Source: a virus
Taxonomy: Duplodnaviria; Heunggongvirae; Uroviricota; Caudoviricetes
Strand: one strand, 5' to 3'
Length of the DNA: 37,493 nt
Virus record (IMG/VR): IMGVR_UViG_2585427621_000010
How positions within the stretch are numbered: the first letter of the stretch is position 1; the number at the start of each line of letters is the position of its first letter. Position numbers: made by a program. Below are positions 30,001 to 36,000 of this stretch, one piece after another.

Positions 30001-33000
30001 GGTAGTGCATCCACCACCTGATTGCAGGCCGCCCACCAGGATAATTCAGCCAGCGATAATTCACGCTCCTGTGTGCCATTCATTGCGTGACGAATGACGT
30101 CAATCATCCATGCTGACAGGTTTTGGTGAGCAAGTTGCTCAAGTGATTCGGAGGTCTGGTCACGCAACTGGTTGTCGCAGTGCCAGCACAACACCATTGC
30201 GCCGGTACCATAACGGTGAATGACGGTTTCACTGTGGTGATAATCGCCGTGTGGCCACTGGCAGGATTTAACATGGCGCAGTAACCAGTCAGACAGTGCG
30301 CCAGCGCCACCAGCAGCACGAATCACTCGTTCGTCGCTGAAAAATGGCAGTAATGATTTATCCTCCGCCAGCGGCTGGCGAACGGCAGGAACGACCCCGG
30401 ACGGCAGATTACGCATGCTTTTCGGTTCCGGCTCCACCAGTACCCGGGTATTGTGGAATACCGGCATGGATTCACGGCCCGGCTTAACGATCACCAGCCC
30501 GAGTTCCGGTACCAGAACAGGTCGAAGTAATACCCGCACGTTACCTCCAGATGCGTTGCTGGAATGTGCGGGACGGACGCGGTGGGCGTTCGGAGTAAGG
30601 AAGCCTGACGGAGATTATCCAGTGACGATAATCGAGACTGAGGGCTTTCTTAACCTCGTATCCGCGCCTGCGGTAACACTGAATCAGCCATTCAGCCTGT
30701 TCTTCGGTGCAGGGGTCGTGCTGATACCAGTCAGATTTGAATGCATGAGAACGCCGCCCGTGCCTGCTGGCAGGGGCGGCAGAGTTATCCGAATTGTAAA
30801 ATTTGGTATCGTGCGCCATCTGTTTTCTCTGCTGGCGCAGCAGGTGCCAGTTGTTCAGGCTGACGGATGGATTGTAAACCAGAACGACCAGAAAAAACAA
30901 AACCCGCCGAAGCGGGTTAAGTGCGGGTGCGTTGAGGATGCCTGACACATCAGCGGTGGCGAGGGATTTCTCCCCCGCCTGGTCTCTTACTCCTCAGGTT
31001 CGTAAGCTGTGAAGACAGCGACCTCCGTCTGGCCGGTTCGGATTCGTACCTCGCAGAGGTCTTTCCTCGTTACCAGTGCCGTCACTATGACGGTTAAACA
31101 GATGACGATCAGGGCGATTAACATCGCCTTTTGCTGCTTCATAACCTGCTTCTCCTTGCCTTTCGGCGCGTAAGAGGCTAACCTACGTTTGTGAAGCATA
31201 GATTGGGCCTCAGATTAATGTTAAGCGTCTTGCAGGACGCGTAATGTTAACTGGGGCTTTTCTCTGTCTGCCTTACGGTGGCATGCCCGAGGCAGACAGC
31301 CTCAAGCACCCGCAGCAATTCTACTTAACTCTCGCTTTACAGCAAACCGTTTTGCCCGATATGGGAATTCCCATACGGAATGAATTCAGTTCCCCAGGCG
31401 CTCCATCAAAAACACAACCAGGCAGTAAACACCCACAACAGCAATAACAGCCAGAGCGCCTTCCATTACCAGTGAAATATCATCCGACATATTCCCTCCC
31501 TTGGTGTGAATCCCGGCGAACGTTTTTACCCCCACCGACAAATAACATATACTAGAAAAGCAATAGCTATAGCAACGCCTGCAAATGCATCTGGCCGGCT
31601 CATTGGTTCTCCCCCTGTGTCGCTTCTACTGCGATCTGACTGGCGTATTCGTTAATGGTAACGATAAGTTCTTGCTCGGCCTCATCCAGACAACTACCGA
31701 TACCTCGCCTGTCCACTTCAGAAGCATCGAAATCTGCACGAAGCCTGGCGACCTTCAGGATTGCGGACAACACCTCATCAGGGATTGCCGGAGAGTTGGT
31801 TGACGTTTCCGAGATTATCCGAAAATTATTGGTTGACGAACCCTTATTTTCCCGAAAGTTTCCAGCCTGAAGCATGGCGGCGCGGTGACACCAGATAATC
31901 CAGCCAAGCGCCATATCCCATGCCATGTATTCTCTATCGCCATTTTTTGCTCTGCGGCGATCTACAGATTCCCCGAAACGCTTCTCCATAAATAATTCAT
32001 AGGCTGCCCGTTCATCCGATACTGATGCCAGTGATGCCAGTGCAATTTTTAATGCGGTAAGCATGTTGTTTTGATCTTCATCGAGTCCGAACGGTATTTC
32101 ATCCCGTGATGACTCAATTCCGGTAATCGTGTTCTGTAGCCATTCTTTGGTTAATTCAGTCATTTTTCACTACCGCCCTTTCGGGCGGTCTCCTGATGTT
32201 CTGAGGGTGCAGGAATCCCTCCGGTTAAGGATTTAATAAAAATCATTTCTGATTTAAATTTTCAGTGTTTAGTTGTTGGTTTATAGCCTTTATGCTTCGG
32301 CCTTATTTCTCAGCCATACACAAACAGGACCATCTTCGGTGTCATGTATCGAACCGATAAACCATCCCTCACCTTCTGGTCGCTCAGGTTCCCATGCTGA
32401 AATATCAGGGCCATCTGCGTCCAGATTAAAATCATCTTCATCCATACTACGGATAGCCCACTGAAGATTATTTTTCTCCATCCAGGCGTTAAACTCTTCC
32501 GTTGAAATATATTCCCGACCATCACAGAATTTTTCATATTCAGGATGCGTCCAGCAGCCATATTCATTACGTTCCACTGGCATTTCTTTAATTACGCTCA
32601 TTTACCCCCCTTATTTAATTTTCTACGACACTTTTTACAATCATCTGGACTTTCGAATGTATCCGGCTCACGCTCATTGCCAAAATACATCCACCCACCG
32701 CAAATACTTGTTATTTCACCTTCAGCAAAATAATGATGTTTTTTCGCCATAAGTGACCTTGCCCAGCCCGGATTCGTTTTACTCACTTGTTGCCTCCTTT
32801 GCGAAGCTCTGCGACTAACTCGTCACATATGTGCGTCAAAGAGCAAAGTTTGATTGCTGGATGTTCGCGCACCATCTCCACACCCTGCGCCCGCAATTCT
32901 GCCAGAAAAGCGTAGGGGTCAGTTTTTTCACTGTGGTACATGGCATCATAGATAATCATTGCAGCGACACCTGCCTGTCCTGCATCTGTGACGGATATAT

Positions 33001-36000
33001 GCTCAAGGGCTACGGCCATTGCGTGTTTCAACCTCTCATTTTCCACCTCAAGCACCACACGATTAGCCTCCAGCTCTTCTATGCGTTTTTTTGCTGCTCC
33101 CAGCTCAACACGCAGCTCCTGATAGTTAATCTCGCTCATTCTCCTTCCTCCCGCACTGCTGTTTTATATGCCCGAAGCACATGCGATGTTTTTCCTGACA
33201 CAGTGCTTCTCAGAAAGAAAATTCCACTGGTGTTTATTACCAGATACGGGTCAGCAAGACGCAGCATATCCAGTATGTGATTATGTTTTCTTGTTTCCAG
33301 CACCGTACTTGAAATAAGCATATGTGACACGGGGCCGAAATCATGATATCTGATTTTCATATCATCACCCTGCTGTAAAAATTACCCGTTATCTCCTGTC
33401 GTTATTTTCTGTATGACATCACGATGCTTATTAATTTCCCGCAGCGCGGCGCATAAGCGCTCCCACTTCTGAACCTGACCTTTTGCCCGGCGCAGCTCGC
33501 GGTTAGCCACATGCAGCGATGGTAAAATCAGACCATCCGGATGCTTTCTGATGAACGACGACTGTGACTGCACTGTGACCGCCACACTTTCAGTTTTAAT
33601 TTCTTCCTGTGTTTCCGCTTCCCGGACTGGTAACGCAACACCTGCCGGCTGAGGAAAGGCTTTACCATCGGTTTCCGTTACCGATGCAGCTTTCGGCTCT
33701 GCCGGTAAATTATCGCCCGGTATGCAGTAACGATATTTACCGTCCTGATTTACGCGAATCAGACGACCTTTGCTGACAGCCATCGCCAGTGATGAATTCG
33801 CCCGGCGGGAGGTAATCCCGAACATTAACGCCAGTTCGTCAGCCGACTGAGGACCATGCTGTTCAATCGCGTTAATCAGCATCTCTGCAGTGGTTTTTGG
33901 GGCCGCTTCAGTTGCCTCACTCGTCAGCCACCACATCGACCCCTTGTTATCAGCTTCGCCACGACGCTTCAGCTTCCAGAGTTCGGTAACAGCATCGTCA
34001 CGGCTGATTTCAAGACGGGCTGCAATCTCGTGCGACGAGGCTTTTTTCAGTGCTTTCAGTGCGTCAAAAACGGTTTCCATTAAATTTTCCTCCCGGTAAA
34101 AATTACTTCTCAACTCAGACAAAACCGGCCGCCTTCCGGCGCTCATATTCCTGTTTCAGCAATTCAATTGGCGTTGGCCCTGGCGGGCGTTTGGGTGCTG
34201 CCAGTTGTCGCCGGACTGGCGGAACACTGAGGCCATTACCAACATGCTTTGCCCATTTCGTCAGCTGCCTTTCCACAAGCCGTTTTAACTCCCCTTCGGT
34301 CATCTGGCGCTCAATCCCCTTTGAACGCATCTCGAGGCAAATGTGGTACAGCACCGGCTGTGGCCACGGGTATTTATCACTCCCGTCGTACCGCCAGGAT
34401 TCATTCCTCCAGCGACGGTACTCCTCCATCACGGCATCCACCGTCAGGCCAAATGGATTTGCCCCGCTCTCCGAAATCAACGCCACAAACTCAGCCAGAT
34501 CCGGAGGCCACGTTTCACCCGCCCGGCAGCGGTCCATGCACTGACGGCAGACCTGCCGGATTTGCTGTTCAGTCATCGCGCCAATCTGAGCAATCCAGAG
34601 CTTCGACGGCGCAGCCCCGTTCTTCTGGGTCCAGCGGTTCGAATACACCTCCCCCATAAGTTCCCACAGCTTCCAGGCCGTTTCCGTTGCTGATAAATCC
34701 GTTTTCACGTTCCCACTGTTCACGTGCTGCCCGAATTTCCTGAACTGCCCGTGATGCGGTGCCACCTGGTGCTGCATGGCTTACCCCCTTGCTGACTGGT
34801 TTTACCTGTGCCCTGACGTGCTGCACGTGACGGGCAAATTTCTGCTCCCACTGAACCTGCGTGAAAACCTTCCCCTCCGCCATCCAGTAATCCCGGAATG
34901 CGGCAAGCTCAGCAGGTGTAAACTCAGGCTCAGGCAGAGCCATACCCCACACTGCTGCCCGCTGTCGAAAATCCGGCGACGGTTGCCAGACTCCAGTCAT
35001 CGGAAATTTCCCGATCGGTTCGCTCAGGCCGTCCAGGTATTCAGGTTCGGCTGTCTGCAACGACGCGTCATTCAACTCACCGGTCGTAGCACTCTCGCGC
35101 ATGCGCGCGTTATGTGTGGGGTTTAATTCTTTATCTGTATCTGTATCTGTCGTGATTTGTCGTGACATATGCGTGACGCGTCGTGACTCATCGTGACAAT
35201 CAGTGTTCTGCTTCCGCAGTCTTTCCCGCTCCCGCTGCGCTCTCTTGCGCTCTGCCGGGGATTTTGCGGTTTGCGAAACATTACCGTTATCCTCCTTCAT
35301 CACCTGGCGTTTTTCCCATCCGGAAATAAGATCACCATCCAGAACTCGCCCCTGCATTGCATGCAAAATTGAATCAATCACGTCTTCCGTCACATCAAGC
35401 GCACTTGCTAAATCTTCCGTCGTGACATCAATGTGACCACGTAGTGACACGCCGTGACATGTCGTGACATTTCGTGACGCACTCACCAGAAGGTGGATAT
35501 ACACCGCCATCACTGTTGCGATTGGCTGTCCTGAGACCCTGGCAATGGTTCGCCATTTGGGATCATTTGGCATGTCATGCCACAATCTGAGCCAGGCATT
35601 AGCCATACTCACCTCATCTGATACCGAACTTTACCCTCGAACATCCGGAAGAAATCCGGCATGAATATTGTTGGTCAATGCACGACAACAGCATTACCAG
35701 GCTGACCACCACTGTTAGTCAGGGTGCCCCAGGCGATCGCCGCTGCGACAAAATCATCCACATCTTTCACCAGCCGATCCCTCCGTTCGACGATCTCACG
35801 GTAATATTCAGAGCTGTGACTGCGCATACGGGCCACCAGCAGAGGCGGCATTGCCTTTTCGATCGCCGGTAACAGAGCCTGAATTTTTTCAACAGCATCA
35901 GGGGTGTCTTTATCCAGCCAACGGAAAATTTTCTGGGTATTACGAGCCAGGGCTTCCGGATGGCTGTCGTCGTACAGTTCCGGGAACGTCATCCCCAGCT

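Follow-up and report, generated by a model that had tools for sequence, protein, structure and literature searches.

Four overlapping small genes in the early region of an Escherichia coli O157:H7 prophage and the acidic mobile-element domain encoded by the last of them

The DNA analyzed here is the IMG/VR virus record IMGVR_UViG_2585427621_000010 (Caudoviricetes), a stretch of 37,493 nucleotides (nt) that we refer to, at its full length, as the window. Our subject is a block of four small genes on its minus strand, at 32290-33360. In the direction of reading, they are p1 (33136-33360; 74 amino acids [aa], ATG start), p2 (32783-33139; 118 aa, ATG start), p3 (32598-32786; 62 aa, GTG start), and p4 (32290-32601; 103 aa, ATG start). 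The list of open reading frames (ORFs) and the sequence place them head to tail, with stop and start codons overlapping as ATGA at p1/p2, GTGA at p2/p3, and ATGA at p3/p4; these coordinates and 4-nt overlaps are exactly those of the original prediction. Shine-Dalgarno-like sequences (GGGTGAT, GGAGGAAGGAG, AAAGGAGG, and AAGGGGGG) lie before the starts, within the 3' end of the upstream gene, and the gap between the DUF1627 gene and the p1 start is 21 nt.

The block and its flanks (window positions 32200-33400) are 100% identical to E. coli O157:H7 genomes, e.g., EC4115, in whose record the prophage adjoins a tRNA-Ser gene. The gene order in EC4115 is integrase, exonuclease, DicB, LexA-family repressor, Cro, YdaT, DnaT-like, P, and DUF1627, followed by four "hypothetical proteins" (p1 to p4), a 187-aa protein, hokD, DUF968, RusA, and Q. 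The block is part of the delayed-early rightward operon, the equivalent of the lambda nin region, in a Rac/YdaT-type lambdoid prophage of E. coli O157:H7. Its predicted nin-like placement between the replication genes and hok was borne out: it lies downstream of the DnaT-like, P, and DUF1627 genes and upstream of hokD, DUF968, RusA, and Q. So were the compositions attributed to its products, namely, a coiled-coil-like N-terminal segment in p2 (weak Pfam coiled-coil matches), a basic p3 with three Cys (isoelectric point [pI] of 9.15), and a strongly acidic p4 (pI of 4.21, net charge of -16). The GC content is 40 to 44% over p3 and p4, against 55 to 58% in the replication genes. A simple consensus scan of 32290-33360 gave one weak promoter-like match (9/12) on the coding strand, at 32656-32683, and placed no terminator-like site on that strand; site counts across the whole scanned region were near the shuffle expectation.

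Each of the four products matches a different PHROG family annotated as unknown function, with E values of 9e-24 for p1 (phrog_1001), 7e-24 for p2 (phrog_492; also phrog_368, at 4e-19), 2e-30 for p3 (phrog_2358), and 4e-55 for p4 (phrog_1372). No PHROG family was matched by the 149-aa antisense ORF on the plus strand (32831-33280) or by three further overlapping ORFs. In pairwise comparisons with homologs at other loci, the ratio of nonsynonymous to synonymous substitution rates (dN/dS) ranged from 0.05 to 0.13 for p4 and from 0.2 to 0.25 for diverged p1 pairs and was 0.06 for the p3 pair of greatest divergence. On these three grounds, sequence comparison identifies p1 to p4 as real genes under purifying selection. 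None of the four products is new to the databases, which list them as hypothetical proteins and in PHROG families. The statement that none of them could be assigned to a known family held up: nothing exceeded a curated cutoff in Pfam, NCBIfam, or PADLOC, the PADLOC-DB defense-system models gave no match at an E value of ≤0.1, and PDB searches with all four single sequences and a p4 profile returned noise only, with nothing significant. Literature searches for these families by protein accession, PHROG number, and anti-defense screens of lambdoid accessory genes found nothing.

Of 5,426 complete E. coli genomes searched by megablast, 331 contained at least 80% of the block. Among the full-length matches listed, identity was 99.6 to 100%, and the strains were O157:H7, O55:H7, and a few of unstated serotype. 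Fragments only were present in a further ∼600 E. coli genomes. The commonest fragment starts 2 nt before the p4 start codon, at query position 798 (window position 32603), and extends through p4 and 90 nt of the downstream spacer; a mosaic junction sits exactly at the p3/p4 boundary. Another fragment is the last 129 nt of p2, common to genes annotated as ead/Ea22-like.

We then compared the neighbors of p4 homologs with at least 79% identity at 83 loci, 80 from viral contigs and three from genomes. All four genes stood together only where p4 was at least 99% identical. Among loci with p4 at 90% identity or less, none had all four genes and only one (L026) had p3 alongside; one locus with a 98% identical p4 (L019) retained p2 and p3, at 54% identity, and was missing p1. 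The genes directly upstream of p4 formed seven groups, and at least five of these are families of real genes: an 84-aa Cys-rich protein of phrog_4030 (31 loci), a 74-aa acidic protein of phrog_4132 (19 loci), p3 (18 loci), an ORF of membrane-embedded appearance (8 loci), a p1-like protein (5 loci), and two singletons. The main upstream families mostly overlap p4 by 4 or 8 nt; besides p3, at least four other, unrelated small genes precede p4 in this manner. The phrog_4030 protein (L002 and 30 other loci), which is p4's most frequent alternative partner, has two Cys pairs (C6/C16 and CPFCG near the C terminus), overlaps p4 by 8 nt, and in E. coli 55989 comes after an S-adenosylmethionine (SAM)-dependent methyltransferase; the order in that strain is DUF1627, DUF977, SAM methyltransferase, 84-aa protein, p4, and DUF7167. 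In strain 1504D004, it is DUF1627, p1, a helix-turn-helix (HTH) protein, a p1 paralog, p4, and DUF551. Homologs of p1, p2, and p3 were each found in phages without the others, including virulent phages in the case of p3.

Since p4 overlaps several unrelated genes by 4 or 8 nt, tight coupling reflects a generic way of joining cassettes and is no sign that the joined genes belong together. The original prediction had taken the overlaps to imply one coupled operon; the tight and probably translationally coupled arrangement stands, but one coherent operon or module does not, given the seven upstream groups at 83 loci. The co-occurrence check that it proposed across related prophages likewise went against a conserved operon, because the four-gene set is confined to ∼331 near-identical genomes of the O157:H7/O55:H7 type and p4 has other neighbors elsewhere. 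On balance, p1 to p4 are probably, although by no means surely, a lineage-specific stack of four independent accessory-gene cassettes and not a multisubunit system.

The product of the last gene, p4, owes its charge to 25 Asp/Glu residues versus 9 Lys/Arg in 103 aa. An alignment of the family separates a conserved N module (R11, G15, W17, H19, P20, F37, and W40) from a near-invariant C-terminal hairpin motif, WxPxxPxGxGWFxxSIHDTEDGPxCxWxR; between the two lies a variable acidic linker, at approximately residues 53 to 69. The acidic stretch DEDDFNLDADGPD, which had been quoted in support of an anti-restriction role, turned out to be this variable linker and not a conserved part of the protein. 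The family as a whole is acidic, with a mean net charge of -13.4 (standard deviation, 3.8) and a charge of -8 or lower in 91% of 140 domains. The AlphaFold2 (AF2) model, with a predicted local distance difference test score (pLDDT) of 88.6 and a predicted template modeling score (pTM) of 0.80, has two helices on a sheet that ends in the conserved hairpin. The predicted fold had no match in the PDB and matched uncharacterized homologs only in BFVD. The family comprises 160 clusters at 90% identity in Enterobacterales, and a profile search recovered 970 representatives clustered at 50% identity, with E values below 1e-10 for 349. Thus, p4 represents an acidic domain conserved among mobile elements, and its predicted fold lacks a solved relative.

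The p4 domain often occurs in longer proteins: 72 of the 146 best representatives have at least 50 extra residues on one side or the other of it. Fusions to Lar restriction alleviation domains were found in P0143 and P0186, above the Pfam cutoff, and in P0245, below it (19.6 versus 28.6 bits). Other partners recognized by Pfam are a Tad2-like anti-Thoeris domain (P0168), KTSC (P0234), and DHHA1 (P0179), with a winged helix just under the cutoff in P0125; an Rv2179c-like 3'-5' exoribonuclease is fused in P0190, and the N-terminal extension of P0195 clusters with it. The partners are mostly without a Pfam match and uncharacterized. The commonest fused module, of ∼100 aa, has the pattern ERxRQ..EGWT.EHDD..GELA.AA.Y...WPW..WKP...LVKAGALILAEIERLDR and occurs, for example, in P0160, P0175, P0180, P0188, P0216, and P0174; it has no Pfam match, and the approximately ten PHROG families that it matches are all annotated as unknown function. 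In P0174, which is metagenomic, the p4 domain is fused to a homolog of the C-terminal half of the 187-aa protein encoded downstream of p4 in the window.

By tblastn, p4 was found in 57 phage records from Enterobacterales, Pseudomonas, Burkholderia, Vibrio, and Acinetobacter, including mEp460_4F5, mEp213, the P1-like phage D6, Rac-SA53, Yersinia phage PY54, and Klebsiella and Erwinia phages. In phages it lies in early regions, adjoining helicase or methyltransferase genes, and its neighbors in some are DNA methyltransferases. Plasmids with a p4 homolog numbered 2,029, among them 1,756 with predicted conjugative ability and 1,496 from Klebsiella. On the Klebsiella IncFII plasmid pBSI060-KPC2 (L087, 7002-9964), the order is traI, traX, PIN, hypothetical, DUF2726, p4 homolog, PLD/Nuc, and repA; the p4 homolog overlaps the DUF2726 gene by 4 nt, and ∼1,900 Klebsiella-type IncFII plasmids have a similar arrangement. 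The DUF2726 neighbor is restriction-endonuclease-like, with a weak REase_MTES_1575 match, and the PLD protein resembles DrmC; the other genes of this cluster had no PADLOC match. Between traX and repA, these epidemic resistance plasmids carry the PIN/DUF2726/p4/PLD cluster as a module rich in nuclease genes. Elsewhere among F-type plasmids, p4 homologs are embedded in the tra operon, flanked by traW and traU or by traB and traV.

The adjoining gene, p3, encodes a basic mini-protein in which H17, H18, C29, C50, C53, and a REPDTFESPDDC motif are invariant among 15 homologs (58 to 95% identity). The predicted C-terminal helix begins with the CxxC, and p3 thus has four conserved candidate metal ligands, including a CxxC knuckle, as would suit a zinc ribbon or treble clef. 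We infer from this pattern that p3 probably binds zinc and is a zinc-stabilized mini-protein. A Lar-like identity for p3 was rejected on its Cys pattern and the lack of a Pfam PF14354 match at an E value of ≤0.1. In RefSeq, the Prokaryotic Genome Annotation Pipeline (PGAP) gives p3 as a 50-aa protein from an internal ATG (WP_001414276.1), hence without the p2 overlap. The upstream GTG start is better supported by the sequence, because AGGAGG lies 6 nt upstream of it, G7, W8, and R10 (upstream of the PGAP ATG) are conserved in homologs and the internal Met is not, the phrog_2358 alignment begins at p3 residue 1, and other GenBank records annotate the 62-aa form. We thus propose a corrected start for the RefSeq p3.

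In p2, the coiled-coil-like N-terminal segment is followed by a helical C-terminal part. The Pfam Ead_Ea22 model (PF13935) scored 18.1 bits against p2, under its gathering cutoff of 27, and over model positions 75 to 138 of 139 only. Window positions 32783-32911, encoding the last ∼43 residues, are ∼91% identical in DNA to PGAP-annotated ead/Ea22-like genes of phage ev099 and E. coli genomes, and some GenBank records name p2 an "eae-like protein." By tblastn, the C-terminal half is 58 to 65% identical to phage proteins, and p2 is itself a mosaic, since the matches cover only parts of it and these differ from phage to phage. The C-terminal domain of lambda Ea22, a protein reported to be pro-lysogenic, has been solved (PMC7093339, PMC10834534); p2 had no PDB sequence match to it at an E value of ≤10. 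Ea22 C-terminal domains differ between lambda and Shiga toxin (Stx) phage homologs (PMC10834534). Taken together, p2 is probably an oligomerizing coiled-coil protein of the Ea22/Eae type.

The first gene, p1, encodes a basic protein (pI of 9.6) that matched nothing in Pfam, NCBIfam, PADLOC, or the PDB. Its homologs were found by tblastn in 102 phage records, including Fels-1, Klebsiella prophages, and many Stx phages, in which they lie in the left-end (integrase-side) region; a large word-indexed database returned three near-identical matches only. A p1 paralog with 38 to 39% identity lies directly upstream of the p4 homologs at five loci (L003, L066, L070, L071, and L076). An Orf73/TraR-like identity was rejected for both p1 and p3, given their Cys patterns and the lack of a Pfam TraR/DksA match; p1 has zero Cys and therefore lacks the C4 zinc motif of Orf73/TraR.

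We give almost no weight to the idea that these ORFs are nonfunctional remnants or annotation artifacts of a decaying prophage. The prophage does have an insertion sequence (IS) and pseudogene fragments elsewhere, and PGAP labels all four products "hypothetical" and differs on the p3 start, but strong purifying selection, large homolog families, a confident p4 structure prediction, and a Shine-Dalgarno sequence at every gene effectively refute this idea as regards coding potential. It is also very unlikely that the four genes make up one functional module, a multiprotein system for host takeover or anti-defense. Overlaps of 4 nt at all three junctions, a single orientation, the lack of internal signals, and perfect conservation of the block across hundreds of O157:H7 genomes would all suit such a module; however, the near identity of the full-length matches listed marks this conservation as clonal descent, the genes separate outside the lineage, p4 is overlap-coupled to at least four other, unrelated upstream genes, and the same families were not found adjacent in distantly related elements. 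The co-occurrence analysis thus largely refutes a single module. If the genes are instead independent cassettes, as we favor, read-through from the early promoter would transcribe them along with the replication genes after prophage induction, coupled reinitiation at the overlaps would be the ordinary lambdoid packing of interchangeable small genes, and each product would act alone, as a small binding protein against a host or competitor component. Read this way, the four-gene "operon" is ordinary: small accessory genes are usually packed in this mosaic way in lambdoid early regions. The products could, like the small exo-xis proteins, modulate phage development or host physiology (lysis-lysogeny, host transcription, or replication), an option that we judge unlikely. 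It draws on the relation of p2 to the Ead/Ea22/Eae group, whose lambda member is reported to favor lysogeny (PMC7093339, PMC10834534), on the location of p1 homologs in many Stx phage records close to the integrase-side end, where the exo-xis region is found, on the small size and basic character of p1 and p3, and on the proposal that small exo-xis proteins bind RNA polymerase or DNA (PMC8614690). Yet none of p1 to p4 matches a characterized exo-xis protein (Ea22, Orf73/TraR-like, Orf60a, Orf61, or Orf63), p1 has no C4 motif, p2 is unlike the solved Ea22 C-terminal domain, and a lysis-lysogeny role leaves unexplained how frequent p4 is in virulent phages and conjugative plasmids.

For p4 itself, the most likely role, which we assign tentatively, is that of a stand-alone counter-defense protein or anti-nuclease decoy. 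In favor of this assignment are the conservation of its charge, its carriage by phages as well as conjugative plasmids, its DNA methyltransferase neighbors, and its fusions to Lar and Tad2-like domains; the support that charge, fusions, and plasmid carriage lend to the original anti-restriction idea is circumstantial. In this role, p4 would be a compact alpha/beta domain that uses a conserved surface of strong negative charge to bind and block a nucleic-acid-binding host protein. More broadly, phrog_1372, for which Pfam has no model, may possibly be a new and widely distributed counter-defense class of phages and conjugative plasmids, with epidemic Klebsiella IncFII(K) plasmids that bear the KPC carbapenemase among the latter; this we regard as a doubtful but reasonable conjecture, under which the domain, by itself or fused to Lar, Tad2, or similar modules, would neutralize a host nuclease or sensor that targets nucleic acids. 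Several observations weigh against a counter-defense role. Pfam, NCBIfam, PADLOC, and PDB searches revealed no homology of p1 to p4 to any defense system or known anti-defense protein. The Lar and Tad2-like fusions amount to 4 of the 72 extended representatives, most partners are uncharacterized, and coiled-coil and nuclease partners are as frequent. Anti-defense genes of plasmids usually cluster in the leading region, and the plasmid p4 homologs lie outside it, within F-type tra operons or between traX and repA. The invariant Trp, His, Asp, and Glu residues of p4 could equally fit a ligand-binding or catalytic site, and both transcription with the replication genes and translational coupling are inferred from sequence alone. 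Alternatively, p4 may be the partner of a mobile-element nuclease, as an inhibitor or immunity protein or as a specificity subunit for the element's own DNA- or RNA-processing enzymes, which seems distinctly unlikely. Nuclease inhibitors are commonly small acidic proteins, such as barstar and the colicin immunity proteins, and the p4 gene overlaps DUF2726, flanked by PIN-domain and PLD/Nuc-family genes, in the ∼1,900 Klebsiella-type IncFII plasmids; the fusions to an Rv2179c-like 3'-5' exoribonuclease and to DHHA1 point the same way. On the other hand, the plasmid association is essentially that of one backbone lineage and therefore counts as one or a few events, and no nuclease gene adjoins p4 in the O157 prophage or in most phage loci. 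Returning to the counter-defense assignment, p4 belongs to a very large, strongly conserved, and uncharacterized domain family of mobile elements; its confidently predicted fold with no structural match, conserved extreme charge, Lar and Tad2-like fusions, and presence on ∼2,000 mostly conjugative plasmids make it a concrete and cheap candidate for anti-defense and nuclease-inhibitor screens.

On the minus strand, the coupled block ends in a 126-nt noncoding spacer (32164-32289) that separates p4 from the gene for the 187-aa protein. Within the spacer, whose RNA folds at -32.2 kcal/mol (z = -2.96), a GC-rich hairpin (GACCGCCC-GAAA-GGGCGGT) stops 11 nt short of the ATG of that gene. Of the 90 loci retrieved, 22 have this hairpin sequence, some of them with other genes upstream. 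A terminator at the end of the block was considered and rejected: the hairpin has no T-tract, and therefore is not a classical intrinsic terminator, and the terminator scan placed none there. It may be an element of RNA stability, processing, or translation control.

The 187-aa protein (31600-32163, minus strand) is acidic (pI of 4.6) and mosaic, with ∼100 N-terminal residues common to DUF551-type proteins and a C-terminal half that matches phrog_14306. At the hokD locus, Rfam identified sok antitoxin RNA (31137-31311, minus strand; 114.9 bits), and the pair therefore looks like an intact type I toxin-antitoxin system. Further Rfam matches are the STnc100 small RNA (27029-27201, minus strand), three tRNA genes downstream of Q (27975-28221, minus strand; Ile, Arg, and Arg in RefSeq), and an ALIL frameshift pseudoknot (24031-24147, plus strand), which belongs to an IS3-family element (IS1203) inserted in the late region. 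On the other side of the block, the longest ORF of the DUF1627 gene (33382-34146, minus strand) is 254 aa. Its real start is probably an internal Met, because the PHROG alignment begins at residue 23 and PGAP gives 232 aa. The protein has winged-helix-like N-terminal segments, with weak MarR/HTH matches.

The block resembles the small ORFs of the lambda nin and exo-xis regions (ren and ninA to ninI; orf60a/61/63/73, ea22, and ea8.5) in its position between the replication genes and Q and in being a series of small early genes, packed tightly and often with overlaps, which are highly mosaic among lambdoid phages and exchanged at gene boundaries (PMC8614690); the lambda genes are dispensable in the laboratory (PMC8614690). 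It differs in that p1 to p4 match no named nin or exo-xis family in Pfam or NCBIfam, with a partial, subthreshold Ead/Ea22 relation for p2 only. Orf73/TraR-like RNA polymerase binders combine a C4 zinc motif with an N-terminal DxxDxA motif (PMC8614690), whereas p1 has no Cys and p3 has three. With the Ead/Ea22-like proteins (PF13935; lambda Ea22 and P22 Ead/Eae), p2 shares a coiled-coil segment and the C-terminal ∼43 residues, but it is shorter, at 118 aa, lacks the N-terminal part of the Pfam model, scores below its threshold, and is encoded in the rightward operon and not in the exo-xis region. Like the DNA mimics T7 Ocr, ArdA, and T4 Arn, p4 is small, carries a net charge of -16 over 103 aa, belongs to a family in which charge is conserved while the linker sequence varies, and is borne by phages and conjugative plasmids. 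Unlike them, it has no sequence or fold similarity to any solved mimic and is most conserved at aromatic, His, and Gly residues and not in a patterned array of carboxylates. Finally, p4 is homologous neither to Lar of the Rac prophage nor to the anti-Thoeris sponge Tad2, and p3, although it contains Cys, has no Lar match; nevertheless, domains of the Lar and Tad2-like families are fused to the p4 domain in other elements, which makes p4 part of the shuffled set of phage modules to which these domains belong.

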